This document shows positions 1 to 30,965 of a stretch of 30,965 nucleotides of DNA, piece after piece. The notes below the pieces were generated by a model. The model was not told where the DNA came from. It ran no database searches and was given only the letters and a program-made list of their open reading frames with translations. The DNA is from a virus, in the UHGV virus genome UHGV-0305615, one strand, 5' to 3'. Position 1 is the first letter of the stretch. Every line of letters starts with the position of its first letter. A program made the translations under genes and the position numbers.

Positions 1-591
1 TTTGCTCACACCGACGATGTAGCAGAACATGGTGGTCAGCTCCGCCGCCGCGCCCGATACGTCGTGCCCGTCTTCCTGTAACTGGTTCAGCAGATTCATC
101 AGCAGTGAGTTCTCCGTCAGGCCGAGAACACCAGACGGCGAGTGAATCAGGCTGCGGTAGCCGGGCTTCAGTGGGGCACTGTATTCTTTTTTGTCTTCCA
201 GCTTGATCGCCTCCATAATGGCGGGCATGAAGCCTGACAAGACCTTCTCCACTTTTGTTTCTTGTTGTCTTAAACGTTTCTCGCATTCAATGAAGTAGCG
301 TCGTACCTGACGACCTTTTTCATTACGCTCGACCATCGCCAGCTCTTTGGCTGTATCGAGGGTGAGGTGGTAGTCTTTTGCAGGACGGCCTCTGCCTATT
401 TTTTCCCGAACTTGGGAAATAATCATAAAGTCTTGATTTTCAACGAAACCATATTCAGCAATTCGTTCGACAATCCACGAAGCAAATCGCTTACCCACAT
501 CGAGGAAAGTGTGTAAATCACGGGCATTAACGAGAAGAGCGGTTTCGTTGGATATAGTGCCGTTGAATACGGGGATGAGTTGACTGGTCAT
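1..591 (-). CDS. Phage antirepressor (Ant/KilA-N-type), N-terminal 197 codons; 3' end lies beyond window start
   Basis: ATG at 591..589 with GGAGG 5 nt upstream; open frame runs to window edge; translation MTSQLIPVFNG...DYHLTLDTAKELAMVERNEKGRQVRRYFIECEKRL resembles remembered antirepressor N-terminal domains. Not in the supplied ORF track (no stop in window). Confidence 0.7.
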   Translation of the reverse strand, partial: MTSQLIPVFNGTISNETALLVNARDLHTFLDVGKRFASWIVERIAEYGFVENQDFMIISQVREKIGRGRPAKDYHLTLDTAKELAMVERNEKGRQVRRYFIECEKRLRQQETKVEKVLSGFMPAIMEAIKLEDKKEYSAPLKPGYRSLIHSPSGVLGLTENSLLMNLLNQLQEDGHDVSGAAAELTTMFCYIVGVSK

Positions 592-915
592 GATGACCTC
601 CTGTTTGTTTTTAGTTACGAAAACCAGTTAGTAGCTGGTGATCGGGTGTCAACTAGAGCACAAACAGTAGCTCCGGGCATATTCCCCTTTCGGGTGTTGT
701 ATTACGCCTCTCCACCCGACCTTTGTACGGATGTGACTATGCCAGATTGCAGGCATAAAAAAGCCGCAAAGCTATCGGGTGCGGATGACCGCTGTTTGTT
801 TTCTAGTGCGGTCAGTATGCGATAGCTCTGGCGGCATTGTCAAATCATGCGCCATTGAGTCCAGCAATCTCTGCAATACCAATAGCGAGATAATCGCGAT
901 TCGTCAGGCGTGATT

Positions 916-1164
916 TTATTGCATATGTCTTAGCTCCACTGAAGTTTTGATTTTATATGGGTTGCCTTTTACCTCAATAACACGATGAGGATCATTTTTT
1001 AGTTCTTCCGCAATCTTCCGTAATTTTCTAACAGCTGAACTGCGGTGTTTATAACGGTAAGTTACAGTTTCTTTTCTGTGCAATACCTCATCATTGTGGA
1101 ACTTAGTCAAAACCATGACGACTTCAAACCTGACGCCGTTGTGTGCAACCATAATCTGCTTCAT
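916..1164 (-). CDS. Hypothetical small phage protein (82 aa)
   Basis: Internal ATG of track ORF 916..1284; this ATG overlaps the TGA of the upstream methyltransferase gene (ATGA, 1161-1164), suggesting translational coupling. No recognisable domain. Confidence 0.45.
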   Translation of the reverse strand: MKQIMVAHNGVRFEVVMVLTKFHNDEVLHRKETVTYRYKHRSSAVRKLRKIAEELKNDPHRVIEVKGNPYKIKTSVELRHMQ

Positions 1165-1811
1165 GCTGCACGCTCCCGCCCCTGGATGTCTGTTGGTGAC
1201 AGCGGAGCATTGCTGAATGCATTTGTTAATCCGCCAATATCCAACGCGTATCCAGGGTGTAGTTGCACTGCCGGGTCTTCGCACTGATTACCCCAAACAT
1301 CGAAGCCATGAGACGTCTGGCGGGCGAACAGTTCAATGCGAGAAACATCGCCTAATAATTGCACAAGTTTTTCACGAACGATATCTGGCTTTCTTGAATG
1401 CTCAAGCCGCGGTGCGGTAAATGACTGAACGATCCCTGCATTAATGCGCGGAGGTAGTTTTCCCTTTACTGCAAACAGGCAATCTTCACTATTGGCGCGA
1501 GTCATGTGTCCCATACCCATAACCAGTTTATCTGGTTGTCGACTACCACATTTTATCCATGTGAAGCCCTTCATGGTCATCAGACGGAATCCCCAGGCTT
1601 CAACAACTTTTAGCGCTTCGAGTGGTTGTGTTGGCACCCACCACATGGCCAACAGACAGTTTTCATCGGCCAAATCCCACACAGGAAGGCGGCAGATATC
1701 CATCACACTCATAACCGGATATTTAAAACCGGCACCGCGATTACCATCTGCGGCTTTGTCCCGGTATACCCAGGGTGGATCTGCATAGATTAGTGTGTAT
1801 TTCTTAGTCAT
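1161..1811 (-). CDS. DNA N6-adenine methyltransferase, MT-A70-like
   Basis: 216-aa ORF with N-terminal catalytic motif LIYADPPWVY (DPPW) typical of phage MT-A70/Dam-like adenine methylases. Confidence 0.8.
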   Translation of the reverse strand: MTKKYTLIYADPPWVYRDKAADGNRGAGFKYPVMSVMDICRLPVWDLADENCLLAMWWVPTQPLEALKVVEAWGFRLMTMKGFTWIKCGSRQPDKLVMGMGHMTRANSEDCLFAVKGKLPPRINAGIVQSFTAPRLEHSRKPDIVREKLVQLLGDVSRIELFARQTSHGFDVWGNQCEDPAVQLHPGYALDIGGLTNAFSNAPLSPTDIQGRERAA

Positions 1812-4680: not shown

Positions 4681-4695
4681 TTACCGTTGAGGTAA
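4681..4695. promoter_or_regulatory. Predicted operator (dyad TTACCGTTGAGGTAA), leftward early promoter region
   Basis: Exact TTACC-N5-GGTAA dyad just downstream of a leftward TTGACA -35 (rc of 4718-4723). Confidence 0.5.
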
Positions 4696-4742: not shown

Positions 4743-4757
4743 TTACCCATAAGGTAA
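4743..4757. promoter_or_regulatory. Predicted operator (dyad TTACCCATAAGGTAA)
   Basis: Exact TTACC-N5-GGTAA dyad between repressor-gene terminator and leftward promoter. Confidence 0.5.
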
Positions 4758-4814: not shown

Positions 4815-5399
4815 TTATTGTTTGTTTTTTTCGTTCTGGTTGATGACAAATTCAATGTAACTTTCGATCTTTGCCTTCTCTGTTTCAGGTAACAATGCGT
4901 AGCGCGAGCGGTCATAGTTGATAGTTGCAGGGTCATGCGGATGAATCAGTAGTTCATATCCGTGACGCCCGAATGCAGATGCAACATTCTCCAGGGTGGA
5001 AATGGAAACGCTGACTTCATTGTTTAACAGGCGGCTTATTGTCACCTGGGCGACGCCGGATGCGCGGTGAAGTTTTCCCTGAGTTGAAAGGTCGCGGCTT
5101 TCACTCATCCAGCGTTCCAGGTTGTGAGCTGCCAGCTGACCAATGTCGCTTGGGCCGACAGGCTGAAAACCTTCCTGAGAAAGCGAGCGATCGATATCAA
5201 GCCAGTTACGGGGTTTATTGGCGGCAGCTTCAATTTTTCGCGCAACCTGGTCGCCGATAACCTTCTTGCCAAGAGCCCAGCGGTTTACCAGATTTGCCTG
5301 AGTTCCAAGTTTTTCTGCCATCCGCGTCTGAACACCATTGAATTCACGGTCGATCAAGTCGTTGAGATTTTGCCTGCGGACGTCCTGGATACTTTTCAT
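4815..5399 (-). CDS. Prophage repressor, CI-like, two HTH domains, no peptidase S24 (autocleavage) domain
   Basis: 194 aa; two XRE-like HTH stretches (MAEKLGTQANLVNRWALGKK... and ASGVAQVTISRLLNNEVSVSISTLENVAS...); divergent from Cro-like gene; dyad operators on both sides. Confidence 0.7.
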   Translation of the reverse strand: MKSIQDVRRQNLNDLIDREFNGVQTRMAEKLGTQANLVNRWALGKKVIGDQVARKIEAAANKPRNWLDIDRSLSQEGFQPVGPSDIGQLAAHNLERWMSESRDLSTQGKLHRASGVAQVTISRLLNNEVSVSISTLENVASAFGRHGYELLIHPHDPATINYDRSRYALLPETEKAKIESYIEFVINQNEKNKQ

Positions 5400-5454: not shown

Positions 5455-5469
5455 TTACCCAACAGGTAA
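5455..5469. promoter_or_regulatory. Predicted operator (dyad TTACCCAACAGGTAA) in repressor/cro intergenic region
   Basis: Exact TTACC-N5-GGTAA dyad. Confidence 0.55.
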
Positions 5470-5502
5470 ATGCACCTCATAGGTAACTATCCTTGATTTT
5501 TG

Positions 5503-5517
5503 TTACCTTATGGGTGA
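5503..5517. promoter_or_regulatory. Predicted operator (TTACCTTATGGGTGA) overlapping rightward promoter
   Basis: One mismatch in right half; lies within the spacer of a TTGATT -35 / AT-rich -10 upstream of the Cro-like gene. Confidence 0.45.
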
Positions 5518-7761: not shown

Positions 7762-7776
7762 TTACCTGTTGGGTAA
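7762..7776. promoter_or_regulatory. Predicted operator (dyad TTACCTGTTGGGTAA) filling a promoter spacer
   Basis: Exact dyad lying between TTGATA (7755-7760) and TAAAAT (7777-7782). Confidence 0.55.
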
Positions 7777-7823: not shown

Positions 7824-7838
7824 TTACCTTAGGGGTAA
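7824..7838. promoter_or_regulatory. Predicted operator (dyad TTACCTTAGGGGTAA) 4 nt upstream of ATG 7842
   Basis: Exact dyad. Confidence 0.5.
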
Positions 7839-7841
7839 ATC

Positions 7842-8186
7842 ATGAGAAAACAGATACAGGCTCTTGGTCGACTCAAAACAGGCCAGATGAACAAAACAGA
7901 ATCTGCGTATTGCCAGCACCTTGAGCTGCGTAAACGTGCAGGGGAAATCGCCTGGTATCGATTCGAGGGTATCAAGCTGCGGTTAGCTGATAACACGTTC
8001 TATACGCCAGATTTCGCTGTGATGCTCGCCACCGGAGAGATGGAACTGCACGAAGTGAAAGGTTTCTGGACCGACGACGCCAGGGTGAAAACCAAAGTAG
8101 CCGCAGATCAGTATCCGTTCCGAATCATCGGGGTAACGGTTAAACCAAAGAAAGCAGGTGGCGGCTGGAACATCGAAGAGTTCTGA
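7842..8186 (+). CDS. Hypothetical phage protein (114 aa)
   Basis: Complete ORF; first gene after the third operator-bearing promoter; no confidently recognised domain. Confidence 0.6.
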   Translation: MRKQIQALGRLKTGQMNKTESAYCQHLELRKRAGEIAWYRFEGIKLRLADNTFYTPDFAVMLATGEMELHEVKGFWTDDARVKTKVAADQYPFRIIGVTVKPKKAGGGWNIEEF

Positions 8187-10196: not shown

Positions 10197-10409
10197 ATGC
10201 CAAAAATACGCTACGACCTTGAAGATATGAGAGATAACTCAGCAAATTTTCCGAAAGAGGTTAAATTTCTCATGCATAAGTATGGTTGCGCTAGGAGGGA
10301 TATAGTTATCGACAGTCAGCACCCTTGCGGCGAGGATGTAATTTTCATTCGCGGTAAATGGGAAGGGTATCTTGACGAGAGTTTTTACGATGAATTTGAT
10401 GGACTTTGA
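10197..10409 (+). CDS. Hypothetical small protein (70 aa)
   Basis: ATG 10197 within track ORF 10176..10409; GAAGG upstream with short spacing. Confidence 0.4.
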   Translation: MPKIRYDLEDMRDNSANFPKEVKFLMHKYGCARRDIVIDSQHPCGEDVIFIRGKWEGYLDESFYDEFDGL

Positions 10410-10451: not shown

Positions 10452-10466
10452 TTACCAAAACGGTAA
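10452..10466. promoter_or_regulatory. Predicted operator (dyad TTACCAAAACGGTAA) upstream of TerS
   Basis: Exact dyad between terminator and TerS start; extra TTACC half-site at 10469-10473. Confidence 0.5.
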
Positions 10467-12642: not shown

Positions 12643-13017
12643 TTACTTAATGGCATCAAATCCAGCGTTGATGGCTTCCGCAATATTGATGGCGCTTGTT
12701 TTATCGAAGTGCCCATTCTGAATAAGCGCCGCATGCAGGCATTGTAACTTCATGTTGTATAAGTGTTCGCTCATGTAATCATTATCACGTTTTTCCATTT
12801 CAGAATGTTGTGCTGTTATCCAGTCATGGAACGTAACGCTAGTACCATGGTCTTCGCTAAGAGTTAACCCGGCCAGTCCCTCACTCTGAATTACTTCGTA
12901 ATGCATTTCATTACCAGCAAAAACGCCATAAAAAACGCAGTCTTCAGCCTGAACGATACGAGAATATTTTAATGGCCATTCATTTAGATACTTAGCCAAC
13001 ATATCAATTGTTTTCAT
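12643..13017 (-). CDS. Hypothetical protein (124 aa), minus-strand insert between TerL and portal
   Basis: Complete ORF with AAGGTGAG RBS; lower GC than flanks; no recognised domain. Confidence 0.55.
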   Translation of the reverse strand: MKTIDMLAKYLNEWPLKYSRIVQAEDCVFYGVFAGNEMHYEVIQSEGLAGLTLSEDHGTSVTFHDWITAQHSEMEKRDNDYMSEHLYNMKLQCLHAALIQNGHFDKTSAINIAEAINAGFDAIK

Positions 13018-13028
13018 GATCTCACCTT

Positions 13029-13052
13029 AAAAAAATGCCCGGCGACCCGGGC
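13029..13052 (-). terminator. Rho-independent terminator on minus strand between tRNA and the 124-aa ORF
   Basis: GCCCGG-CGAC-CCGGGC hairpin followed on the minus strand by a T-run (A-run 13029-13035 on plus). Confidence 0.5.
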
Positions 13053-13215
13053 GAACTGGAAGCAATGAGTTATGCCTTCCGTGGCTGTACTGGTTTACAG
13101 CATGAAGTCATCGCAATGGCGTCCTGCTGTAAAAAGGGCGGTGATAGTTCTTCAAGGGAAACCATCACCGCCAAGCACCTGGAACTTCTGGCATCACGGT
13201 CCTTAGGCGTGATTC

Positions 13216-13292
13216 TGGCGTGGCATGCAGGATTCGAACCTGCGACCAACCGCTTAGAAGGCGGTTGCTCTGTCCGACTGAGCTAATGCCAC
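13216..13292 (-). tRNA. tRNA-Arg (anticodon UCU)
   Basis: 77-nt minus-strand sequence GTGGCATTAGCTCAGTCGGACAGAGCAACCGCCTTCTAAGCGGTTGGTCGCAGGTTCGAATCCTGCATGCCACGCCA folds as a cloverleaf: 7-bp acceptor stem, GCTC/GAGC D-stem, ACCGC/GCGGT anticodon stem with loop CTTCTAA, GCAGG/CCTGC T-stem with TTCGAAT loop, encoded CCA. Confidence 0.9.
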
Positions 13293-13614: not shown

Positions 13615-13629
13615 TTACCTGAAAGGTAA
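13615..13629. promoter_or_regulatory. Predicted operator (dyad TTACCTGAAAGGTAA) between tRNA leader and virion genes
   Basis: Exact dyad; a leftward TTGACA -35 (rc of 13646-13651) lies 17 bp away. Confidence 0.5.
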
Positions 13630-30245: not shown

Positions 30246-30266
30246 AAAAAAGCCCGCAACGCGGGC
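30246..30266 (-). terminator. Rho-independent terminator ending the membrane-protein operon
   Basis: GCCCGC-AAC-GCGGGC hairpin followed on the minus strand by T6 (A-run 30246-30251 on plus). Confidence 0.7.
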
Positions 30267-30270
30267 TTAT

Positions 30271-30603
30271 TCAGTTATTTACTTTCTTTGGCACTATTGC
30301 TGATAATGAGATCATAAAGCCAGTTAGAGCAGCAATAATTAATGGGAATATGAAAGCATCTGAAGTTCTCAGTGGATTCTTCATATCGAACAGAATAACA
30401 ATGAAGAATGCGCTGGTTGCAAAAGTAGATGATGAATAAACCTCATTCATCTTGTATTGCAACTTATCCAAAGAAAAAGGAGGCGTATCTTTGCAAACGG
30501 CATCCCATATCAGATGAACAGCAAGATAAGCAATGCACAGTATGAAATAAAACCTTGTCAATTGCTGTGCATCTCTGGGCGCAAGCCAAGATAAATCAGG
30601 CAT
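30271..30603 (-). CDS. Hypothetical membrane protein (110 aa, about three predicted TM segments)
   Basis: Hydrophobic stretches FYFILCIAYLAVHLIW, FATSAFFIVILF, AFIFPLIIAALTGFMISLSAIV; start 1 nt after upstream gene's stop. Confidence 0.6.
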   Translation of the reverse strand: MPDLSWLAPRDAQQLTRFYFILCIAYLAVHLIWDAVCKDTPPFSLDKLQYKMNEVYSSSTFATSAFFIVILFDMKNPLRTSDAFIFPLIIAALTGFMISLSAIVPKKVNN

Positions 30604-30604
30604 T

Positions 30605-30793
30605 TTAGTTGGCTAACTTCTTTGCGGCATAGATAGCAGGGAGTGCAACAGCACCAGCCACAGCAAATGCATAGGCTATCCCAGCTGTAACAGTAAAAGC
30701 AGGAAGCAGGAAAGATAATCCGCCTGGTAGGGCAAAGCCTAAGCCCGCTCCGCCAATAATGGCCTTCAGCAATGTAATGATGTTGATTTCCAT
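30605..30793 (-). CDS. Hypothetical small membrane protein (62 aa, Gly/Ala-rich, two hydrophobic segments)
   Basis: GAGGGGG RBS; MEINIITLLKAIIGGAGLGFALPGG... with charged C-terminus KKLAN. Confidence 0.55.
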   Translation of the reverse strand: MEINIITLLKAIIGGAGLGFALPGGLSFLLPAFTVTAGIAYAFAVAGAVALPAIYAAKKLAN

Positions 30794-30819
30794 GTTTCCC
30801 CCTCATGTAAACTCTCGGT

Positions 30820-30834
30820 TTACCTTTGGGGTAA
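30820..30834. promoter_or_regulatory. Predicted operator (dyad TTACCTTTGGGGTAA) abutting the -10 of the membrane-operon promoter
   Basis: Exact dyad; minus-strand promoter TTGCAG (rc of 30857-30862), 17-bp spacer, TACTAT (rc of 30834-30839). Confidence 0.5.
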
Positions 30835-30905
30835 TAGTACTCTATTCACCCCCAGTCTGCAATCTGTACAGAATTATTTAAAGGCACGTCCCTGTGCCGC
30901 CGCCG

Positions 30906-30965
30906 TCAGAAGAACCCTGCCTTGTCGTTGATGTACTCCGCGTGAGTCTGGATATCACGCAGGCA
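30906..30965 (-). CDS. 3' end of a minus-strand gene (19 C-terminal codons ...CLRDIQTHAEYINDKAGFF); 5' part beyond window
   Basis: Open frame from window edge to TGA (rc of 30906-30908), followed by a weak hairpin (30883-30898). Confidence 0.3.
   Translation of the reverse strand, partial: CLRDIQTHAEYINDKAGFF

Follow-up and report, generated by a model that had tools for sequence, protein, structure and literature searches.

A two-domain antirepressor in a probable RNA-gated, immI-like cassette of the virus genome UHGV-0305615

The virus genome UHGV-0305615, a stretch of 30,965 nucleotides (nt) which was analysed as a whole and is called the window below, opens with a minus-strand open reading frame (ORF) encoding an antirepressor, Ant. 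Probably, although by no means certainly, Ant is a two-domain protein which inactivates the repressor (Rep) of its own phage, and its gene is part of an RNA-gated cassette resembling immI of phage P1 that is not under LexA. This view is built on protein homologies, on the match of a leader RNA to a known family, and on the complementarity and covariation of that RNA with its presumed targets. Protein antirepression in phage SPC32H, RNA immunity through c4 of P1 and IsrK, and the RNA family sRNA-Xcc1 have been described separately and are linked here. To judge from these comparisons, an SPC32H-type Ant domain on a swappable head under the control of a c4-class RNA appears to be new, and sRNA-Xcc1 seems not to have been read in this way before; in a limited literature search we found no description of a c4-type guard or regulator role for it.

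Domain structure of Ant and its presumed target

The initial annotation had attributed an antirepressor-type N-terminus to the protein. Profile comparison indicates that this is correct, far beyond chance: residues 21-90 align with the full length (positions 1-68) of the Pfam profile AntA/AntB (PF08346) at 97.5 bits (cut-off 27; E 6.7e-28), and the 'anti-repressor Ant' families of PHROG match as well. The C-terminal part has another relative. Residues 134-212 align without gaps with residues 2-80 of the Ant protein of SPC32H, which is 86 amino acids (aa) long (38% identity, BLASTP E 2e-20); the same domain is 40% identical to a small Ant of Escherichia coli and matches chain E of PDB entry 5D50 (5d50_E) with an E value of 5e-14. 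In SPC32H an Ant tetramer binds two Rep dimers and breaks up the Rep tetramer (PMC9638917). The repressor of the window matches a partner chain in the same complex (residues 1-190 against 5d50_A, E 4e-42) and is 41.8% identical to SPC32H Rep over 98% of its length; phiV10 and phiv142-3 (Uetakevirus) encode the same repressor with 100% identity. The window repressor was correctly described from the outset as lacking a self-cleavage domain, since Pfam gave only matches of the helix-turn-helix type HTH_3 and found no Peptidase_S24 domain.

A tblastn search with the C-terminal 111 residues of Ant yielded 34 phage records, which are essentially the phages of the 37 records with Rep homologues. Both proteins were present in phiV10, TL-2011b, Tyrion, BUCT554, Klebsiella ST512-KPC3phi13.3, ε15, SPN1S and SPC32H. 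The pairing of Ant with Rep is thus based on homology and co-occurrence. Because the two proteins are homologous to chains of 5D50 and co-occur, antirepression of an uncleavable repressor is supported, and from these alignments Ant most likely inactivates the Rep of its own phage by binding it. The inactivation route that had been proposed, binding of an antirepressor, is therefore retained as the likely one.

The precedent is a different one from that first proposed. Gifsy-type prophages of Salmonella had been named as the model. GfoA, GftA and GfhA of the Gifsy phages and Tum of phage 186 do belong, like the Ant of the window, to the class of proteins which bind a non-cleavable repressor. 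However, Gifsy antirepressors are small, Tum-like and under LexA, and act with DicA/RacR-type repressors (PMC3121763). Going by these descriptions they differ from the Ant of the window in protein family, size and repressor family, and the LexA box is theirs only. The closer system is the Rep-Ant pair of SPC32H, an ε15-like podophage of Salmonella (PDB 5D50, 5D4Z), in which Rep and the Ant domain are homologous to those of the window and which also shares the operator TTACC-N5-GGTAA, the genome type and the gene order. SPC32H Ant is a stand-alone protein of approximately 86 aa whose gene adjoins the tailspike gene, whereas in the window the domain makes up the C-terminal third of a 216-aa AntA fusion. 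Moreover, the SPC32H ant promoter carries a LexA box and a Rep operator; the ant of the window has neither and is apparently controlled by an antisense RNA.

Among relatives the N-terminal head differs and is either AntA or Bro-N. In the Shiga toxin (Stx) phage VT2-Sakai the same AntA head together with the leader is joined to a P22_AR_C tail. This swap suggests that the C-terminal domain follows the type of the resident repressor and that the head is interchangeable. NCBIfam yielded no family either for the fusion or for SPC32H Ant. The fusion of phiV10 is annotated as 'anti-immunity protein', and the gene is otherwise annotated only as 'AntA/AntB antirepressor family', while the part expected to bind Rep is the unannotated C-terminal domain.

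The ant gene continues across the ends of the window

The gene had been called partial. From its ATG (591-589) it does run past position 1, so that the beginning of the window holds codons 1-197, but it is completed at the opposite end (30965->30906). The finding of the remaining 60 nt at that end means that the window closes on itself, and ant looks partial because the sequence was linearised inside the gene. The joined ORF (591->1 + 30965->30906) encodes 216 aa and is identical to E. coli prophage genes at 648 of 651 nt; in E. coli prophages that are 99.6-99.7% identical to window positions 1-1200, ant is likewise a gene of 651 nt for a protein of 216 aa. Database records of 55 contigs contain exactly the 216-aa protein of the window, and each of the 120 best homologues is at least 87% identical to it. 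In phage HEMP4 (39,891 bp; locus L131) the sequence of window positions 30883-30965 stands immediately before that of position 1.

About 7.4 kb of HEMP4 (34076-39891 and 1-1576) have no counterpart in the window. This absent segment carries a small ant gene with a LexA box, together with an isrK/C4 leader; from the synteny of related prophages, genes for tail fibre, lysis and integrase are expected in it as well. HEMP4 has window positions 1-216 in a second copy at 33863-34075, so the join of the window falls inside a repeat common to two ant paralogues; the HEMP4 segments tied to the 1/30965 junction are 33863-34075 and 1577-1935. In the window ant adjoins an MT-A70 gene, while in prophages it is proximal to the integrase gene: eight long contigs and two complete genomes have only a convergent integrase gene and guaA to the left of ant. 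The long-contig places for the exact Ant were drawn from 24 of 85 index blocks, and in all eight among the matches listed the convergent integrase gene and guaA follow ant. In related phages a near-identical coding region (window 1-595) occurs at a different locus with a different leader. The arrangement in the window could be a deletion derivative that arose by recombination, but a collapse of the two ant paralogues during assembly is more likely.

The spacer upstream of ant

In this common E. coli prophage gene the control element appears to be an 'empty' spacer of 324 nt. Since ant is read from the minus strand, the control region upstream of it (592-851) falls within the window. In the direction of transcription it shows a σ70-like promoter, a decoy which duplicates the target site, a terminator-like hairpin, a structured RNA and the translation initiation region of ant (Table 1). 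The promoter at 843-814 is kept in VT2-Sakai and in the related loci L007, L041, L069 and L122. The hairpin at 784-757 was missed by a strict terminator scan with a loop limit of 8, yet it is conserved in the alignment of the sub-family, and P1 immI has a similar hairpin in the corresponding position.

The structured RNA is a member of sRNA-Xcc1 (Rfam RF02221) by its score of 64.8 bits (gathering score 53; E 1e-9) over model positions 1-87 of 87. It consists of a closing stem of 9 bp, a first hairpin with a GAAA loop, a second hairpin and a 3' ACCA tail (639-636), and the minimum free energy (MFE) fold shows the same three-way junction. Hairpin 2 has the loop CUGUUUGU (667-660), an antisense match to ACAAACAG at two places: in the ribosome-binding site (RBS) of ant (608-601), and in the decoy (799-792), whose copy lies 70 nt upstream of the RNA. 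A second segment, the junction UAGUUGAC (655-648), lies next to hairpin 2; CUAGU at 656-652 matches the ACUA(G) beside both target sites. The b2-like site at 608-601 overlaps the Shine-Dalgarno (SD) sequence AGGAGG, which is located 5 nt upstream of the ATG. For the duplex of decoy and RNA an energy of -20.9 kcal/mol was predicted, as against -12.1±2.8 for shuffled sequences (5 of 1000 as good).

The extent of the unit is indicated by where similarity ends. On one side the similarity to Stx phages spans 277-851 only and stops just above the -35 element; on the other the similarity to an integrase-proximal copy (L004) ends about 24 nt past the ant stop codon, and the match to HEMP4 begins at 30883. 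These limits define a cassette of about 0.93 kb (851->30883 across the window ends). A terminator was not found between 916 and 851. With a promoter-like site, a terminator and a regulatory RNA of its own, the ant cassette is, as far as can be read from these elements, self-contained. The initial placing of ant at the distal end of the leftward early operon is correct insofar as the gene comes after the leftward genes and shares their strand, but this separate set of control elements was overlooked.

Two further pairings were observed in the spacer. A hairpin CCAG-CUACUAA-CUGG (622-638, minus strand) lies directly 3' of the sRNA-Xcc1 element and overlaps the ACCA tail. Its stem co-varies in the sub-family (CCAG/CUGG, CCAU/AUGG, GCCAG/CUGGC, CCAC/GUGG) while the loop sequence is kept; the hairpin may signal the 3' end or processing. 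In addition, positions 820-830 in the promoter spacer are complementary over 11 nt to 767-777 in the loop and 3' arm of the terminator (minus strand; repeat I3). In transcripts that enter from upstream this pairing might have an antiterminator function. It is present in VT2-Sakai, L007 and L069 and absent in L019 and L041; since it is not conserved in the latter two loci, it was not used in the model.

Pairing and covariation across the sRNA-Xcc1 family

The conserved core ATACAANACCCGNAAGGGGAA was found in at least 120 IMG/VR contigs, representing 111 distinct elements, 103 of which had enough flanking sequence for counts of pairing (complement of at least 6 nt; downstream range 120 nt). A complement of the loop was present downstream in 71% of the cognate pairs and upstream in 74%, compared with 8% and 7% of non-cognate combinations. 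For the junction the corresponding values were 61% against 11% downstream and 47% against 8% upstream. In 61 of 73 cases the distance from the end of the loop target to an ATG or GTG was 8-12 nt, and in 67 of 73 an SD-like tetramer abutted the target. In the sub-family nearest to the window six near-identical cassettes carried six different triplets of loop, decoy and RBS site, which change together; VT2-Sakai adds one further loop/target variant (CUUAUUUG / CAAAUAAG). These natural triplets are ready specificity variants for predictions on base pairing. The closing stem has a mean length of 8.9 bp and 55 different strand sequences among the 111 elements, and the flanks across the family, 5' of the UAUG type and with 3' CACC tails, are like those of c4. 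When 105 elements were aligned with plain MAFFT, indels put the closing stem out of register and RNAalifold recovered only 7 pairs; helices and complementarity were therefore counted directly.

The ORFs downstream of these RNAs are diverse. Among 66 that are linked to a target, Pfam recognised P22_AR_C (9), Rha (8), KilA-N (8), Bro-N (7), ORF6N (6), AntA (5) and P22_AR_N (4), and many ORFs of about 80 aa with unknown function were also found. Within the phage group of the window the type of leader varies: HEMP4 has sRNA-Xcc1 before its first fusion gene and isrK plus C4 before the second, in phiv142-3 and two E. coli prophages the AntA or BRO fusions follow isrK plus C4, and the leader of VT2-Sakai is of the sRNA-Xcc1 type. 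No sRNA-Xcc1, C4 or isrK RNA was found in SPC32H.

The isrK and C4 matches before the paralogous AntA/BRO-Ant fusion are located at L129 6330-6800, L131 34562-34746, L001 6647-6832 and L128 5763-5945, and in L129 the promoter of the fusion gene also has a Rep operator, TTACCTTTGCGGTAA. Two of the IMG/VR loci, L069 and L075, bear two sRNA-Xcc1-type elements each in tandem, approximately 380-530 nt apart. In Xylella such elements are listed beside C4 and isrK matches (table in PMC12189769). This suggests arrays of RNA-guarded small genes.

Comparison with immI of P1 and other systems

The order of elements in the window is that of immI of P1 and P7: promoter, a1/b1, terminator hairpin, structured RNA, a2/b2 at the SD sequence, and antirepressor gene. 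In P1 the annotated elements are the operator Oc4, promoters, a1, b1, the c4 RNA, a2, b2, icd and ant, and c4 is annotated as repressing icd-ant translation via a2 and b2. The c4 RNA is processed and works in trans. The loop of its hairpin 2 pairs with the SD-abutting b2 and its junction strand with a2, so that loop and junction are the two antisense segments as in the window RNA, and both RNAs have 5' UAUG and 3' CACC flanks. Between b1 and c4, P1 has a hairpin CCGCA-N12-UGCGG followed by a U run, which is recognised by the isrK model of Rfam; this model corresponds to the a1/b1 plus terminator segment of immI and scores 35 bits on P1 itself. The change of loop and target together between window-type cassettes resembles the difference between the immunity types of P1 and P7.

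There are also clear differences. The window RNA belongs to sRNA-Xcc1 and the P1 RNA to C4 (RF01695), to which P1 c4 scores 68.8 bits with the same tool that found no such match in the window; neither model matches the other RNA. Hairpin 1 of the window RNA is elaborated by an internal loop AAUACAA/GGGGAAUA and the GAAA loop. Unlike immI, the window cassette has neither an icd-like leader ORF nor a repressor operator at its promoter, and P1 Ant has a KilAC (ANT) domain whereas the Ant of the window has AntA.

The region isrK-orf45-anrP of Gifsy-1 is similar to the window cassette in that a short terminated RNA precedes an antirepressor-like gene and RNA-RNA pairing takes place near an RBS. IsrK activates orf45-anrP translation in trans, with partial read-through of a terminator (PMC4825925). 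It is thus an activator working through an upstream ORF, and no such ORF is present in the window. In the phage group studied here the isrK model marks the equivalent position before C4, but not the decoy and terminator region of the window.

Stx phages (ant of phi24B, H0160 of VT2-Sakai, L0142 of 933W) share about 84% nucleotide identity with the window over 277-851, a stretch which covers the AntA N-terminal domain, RBS, sRNA-Xcc1 RNA, decoy, terminator and promoter. The C-terminal domain of their Ant is P22_AR_C, paired with cleavable repressors of the CI/C2 type, whereas that of the window is SPC32H-Ant-like. In phi24B a knock-out of ant only slowed induction-dependent late expression (PMC3064807). 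The same leader precedes ant of VT2-Sakai, an Stx2 phage, and Ant affects the kinetics of induction and hence toxin release; if Ant of Stx phages is indeed gated by this RNA, the gating is relevant to Shiga toxin expression.

In Xanthomonas campestris sRNA-Xcc1 is a discrete RNA of 88 nt on Northern blots (PMC2996969). It has been described as a trans-acting, virulence-linked integron sRNA controlled by HrpG/HrpX. Its covariance family is that of the window RNA. Elements of this family have also been noted upstream of the toxin gene symE in Xanthomonas integron cassettes, where only the position was remarked upon (10.1101/2025.06.18.660453), and upstream of an ORF6N gene in APSE phages. The reading of sRNA-Xcc1 given here bears on studies which treat it as a virulence or vesicle-delivered sRNA.

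LexA control belongs to a separate small ant gene

The initial annotation had seen no LexA box (CTGT-N8-ACAG) in 592-915, and a scan allowing one mismatch confirmed that there is none. LexA control of ant was discarded, the two exact boxes of the window (13085 and 17627) being far off. The absence of a box had led to the suggestion that the signal releasing the antirepressor might lie left of the window. This is not supported: the 5' region of ant, with the apparent antisense RNA circuit, lies to the right, and leftward there are only the integrase gene and guaA.

Inspection of full prophages, which had been proposed as a check, did reveal a LexA box, but before a different gene. Upstream of the small ant gene of SPC32H (86 aa, beside the tailspike gene) there are a Rep operator and the LexA box CTGTATGTTTATACAG. 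E. coli relatives encode an 85-aa Ant homologue (88% identity) adjoining a tail-fibre gene and preceded by TTACCTTTCAGGTAA and TACTGTATAAATATACAGT; here, too, a LexA box and a Rep operator are both found upstream, and in both phages the operator is of the type TTACC-N5-GGTAA. In HEMP4 the small ant gene is located at 34835-35086 with a perfect LexA box at 35108. Since the 3' side of the 591->1 gene faces this box, the LexA box of the complete phage cannot drive it. By its position the LexA box of this phage group is therefore taken to control a separate small ant paralogue, the presumed SOS sensor. The paralogue is absent from the window, whose sole copy of the Ant domain is at 16-192. An ORF of 82 aa at 30558-30806 was considered as an SPC32H-type small Ant and rejected, as it showed no similarity and resembles a membrane protein.

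One of the exact LexA-type boxes of the window, CTGTACTGGTTTACAG at 13085-13100, is situated between the terminase and portal genes, 68-83 nt upstream of a minus-strand ORF of 124 aa (12643-13017; phrog_4846, unknown function), and a terminator-like hairpin (13030-13060) lies between the two. The box is kept in HEMP4 and is absent at the same place in SPC32H.

Proposed mechanism and alternatives

The following scheme would account for these features. A constitutive-looking promoter would serve, in order, the decoy with its leaky terminator, the stable 90-nt RNA and the ant RBS. The 90-nt RNA would be excised from the cassette transcript in the manner of c4, would accumulate in the lysogen and would block translation of ant; the closing stem, the 3' ACCA tail (639-636) and the 5' UAUG-type flanks of the family are suggestive of processing by RNase P. 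Termination behind the 5' decoy would yield an IsrK-like short RNA which titrates the 90-nt RNA. Ant would be made once target-bearing transcripts exceed this RNA, either right after infection or when there is read-through from the derepressed leftward operon (promoter 4723-4695). RNA-gated ant would then form a second layer which reinforces the switch or commits the phage to it, the SOS sensor being the small ant paralogue with the LexA box. In this scheme the repressive direction, the action in trans, the processing and the trigger of release are what we infer. In phiv142-3 and HEMP4 the LexA-controlled small ant is immediately followed by a paralogous cassette, a placement that fits cassettes fed by induction-activated transcription, and the mild effect of the phi24B knock-out fits a reinforcing rather than a triggering role.

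Several points weigh against this scheme. Binding of Ant to Rep is deduced from 38% identity, and this in a fused context. The promoter of the cassette is a consensus match only, of which the scan gave 2 where 1.3 were expected. The duplex at the RBS region, taken alone, has only a modest energy, 49 of 1000 shuffled sequences being as good. The Rfam models C4, c4-a1b1 and isrK gave no match in 540-1000 at E values up to 10, and membership of the leader in C4 or IsrK was rejected on this ground; its relation to c4 rests on architecture and function, and it is better called a c4-class variant than a C4 member. The sign of regulation is uncertain because IsrK, the counterpart of the decoy, activates in trans. 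Finally, an arrangement in which ant is followed by the 30.8-kb moron genes of the window with no small ant was not seen at the eight long-contig places among the matches listed, and if the window is an assembly collapse, the role of read-through in the real phage becomes uncertain.

The idea that ant is an SOS-linked inducer as in Gifsy, with a LexA-controlled promoter perhaps outside the window, would suit a repressor with no cleavage domain; relatives of the phage do use a LexA-controlled Ant, and this route has been reviewed as common among Salmonella prophages (PMC7380047). It is nevertheless very unlikely and appears to be largely refuted by the sequence: the upstream side of ant lies within the window and is free of LexA boxes, a convergent integrase gene and guaA occupy its 3' side in natural contexts, the LexA box of relatives precedes the distinct 85-aa ant, and Gifsy antirepressors are small Tum-like proteins and not AntA proteins. 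A more serious alternative, although we consider it distinctly less probable than not, is that the cassette serves for anti-immunity or as a weapon in superinfection, like Ant of P22 or P1. Expressed for a short time from the entering genome, it would inactivate the Rep of a related resident prophage; the RNA would be the immunity determinant protecting a lysogen with the same cassette type, and the cassette would have little part in the induction of its own prophage. Loop and target specificities that differ among near-identical cassettes, as expected for immunity types, would agree with this, as would the two fusions of HEMP4 behind two RNA types (Xcc1 and C4), the annotation of the phiV10 fusion and the merely slowed induction of the phi24B ant mutant (PMC3064807). 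On the other hand, immediately upstream of the cassette there are operons which are switched on during induction (pL here, the LexA-controlled small ant in phiv142-3 and HEMP4), and this position suggests a link with induction. One role does not preclude the other.

It is rather doubtful that the leader works only in cis, with the loop sequestering the SD sequence, or as an activator in the style of IsrK, so that the structured RNA would be no repressor in trans. The MFE fold of the whole leader does pair the loop with the SD-adjacent site in cis, and IsrK provides an example of activation of orf45-anrP translation in trans (PMC4825925). However, P1 c4, which has the same layout, is annotated as a repressor of icd-ant translation via a2 and b2, the Xanthomonas sRNA is a discrete species of 88 nt (PMC2996969), and the closing stem with its 5' UAUG and 3' CACC flanks resembles the processing substrate of c4. 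It is also very unlikely that 'antirepressor' is a misnomer and that the protein is a toxic or DNA-binding effector of the KilA/Bro kind, the RNA being a guard similar to a type I antitoxin outside the lysis-lysogeny switch. Members of the RNA family are also found before genes of the KilA-N, Bro-N, ORF6N and Rha types, before many unknown ORFs of about 80 aa and before symE in Xanthomonas integron cassettes (10.1101/2025.06.18.660453), and the AntA domain itself has no demonstrated role in repressor binding. Against this, the C-terminal domain has a homologue of known structure that binds Rep, and it co-occurs with Rep homologues. Taking these arguments together, we favour the RNA-gated, Rep-inactivating Ant.

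An extension of the favoured scheme is more speculative and is offered tentatively. Phages like ε15 and phiV10 might possess a two-tier switch, and sRNA-Xcc1 in general might be an immunity RNA of mobile elements which guards the next gene. In such a switch the small LexA-gated Ant would sense DNA damage, and one or two larger Ant fusions would each be locked by their own RNA of the C4 or sRNA-Xcc1 type. Derepressed read-through would bring an excess of decoy and mRNA, and positive feedback by RNA titration would commit the phage to lysis.

Repressor operators and other features

The features discussed are listed in Table 1.

Table 1. Positions of the ant cassette, the repressor gene and associated sites in the window
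Feature	Position	Strand	Basis or remark
σ70-like promoter, TTGACA-18-CATACT	814..843	-	consensus scan, 10/12 matches
Decoy, a1/b1-like duplicate of the target: ACUAG (807-803), ACAAACAG (799-792)	792..807	-	repeats I1, D1
Terminator-like hairpin, CCGCA-N11-UGCGG then C + U6	757..784	-	between decoy and RNA; read from sequence
Structured 90-nt RNA, sRNA-Xcc1 (Rfam RF02221)	632..721	-	cmscan
Translation initiation region of ant: AACUA (616-612), ACAAACAG (608-601), SD AGGAGG (602-597)	597..616	-	repeats I2, D1
ant ORF, codons 1-197	1..591	-	AntA domain nt 322-531; SPC32H-Ant-like domain from nt 192
ant 3' end, 19 codons + stop (CLRDIQTHAEYINDKAGFF*)	30906..30965	-	in frame with ORF at 591->1
Small hairpin GGCACAGGGACGUGCC directly after ant stop	30883..30898	-	3' cassette boundary
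Rep, 194 aa, two HTH-type domains, presumed target of Ant	4815..5399	-	Pfam HTH_3-type matches only
Three TTACC-N5-GGTAA-type operators, between repressor and cro-like genes	5455..5517	.	motif scan
Leftward early promoter-like site, TTGACA-17-AATCAT	4723-4695	-	start of operon toward cassette
Two exact TTACC-N5-GGTAA operators flanking the leftward promoter-like site	4681-4695, 4743-4757	-	

With up to two mismatches the operator motif TTACC-N5-GGTAA occurs 31 times in the window, as against 7.9 matches expected. Despite this enrichment elsewhere there is no such match in 592-915, and control of the cassette promoter by Rep was therefore dismissed. Exact operators were also observed beyond the immunity region: at 7762-7776 and 7824-7838 (before the gene at 7842), 10452-10466 (in the start of the ORF at 10406), 13615-13629 (before the block of head genes) and 30820-30834 (before the gene for the 82-aa membrane protein). 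These sites and the enrichment suggest that Rep may control several operons, like C1 in P1.

Two small hydrophobic ORFs of 82 and 110 aa (30271-30806, minus strand) come after the last of these operators and end at a strong terminator near 30255. Their products resemble membrane proteins of the moron type that are expressed from a prophage; relatives have toxin-antitoxin genes of the YafO type at this place. A tRNA gene (13219-13292, minus strand; 73 bits) is situated between the terminase and portal genes, and SPC32H has a tRNA-Arg gene at the same place.

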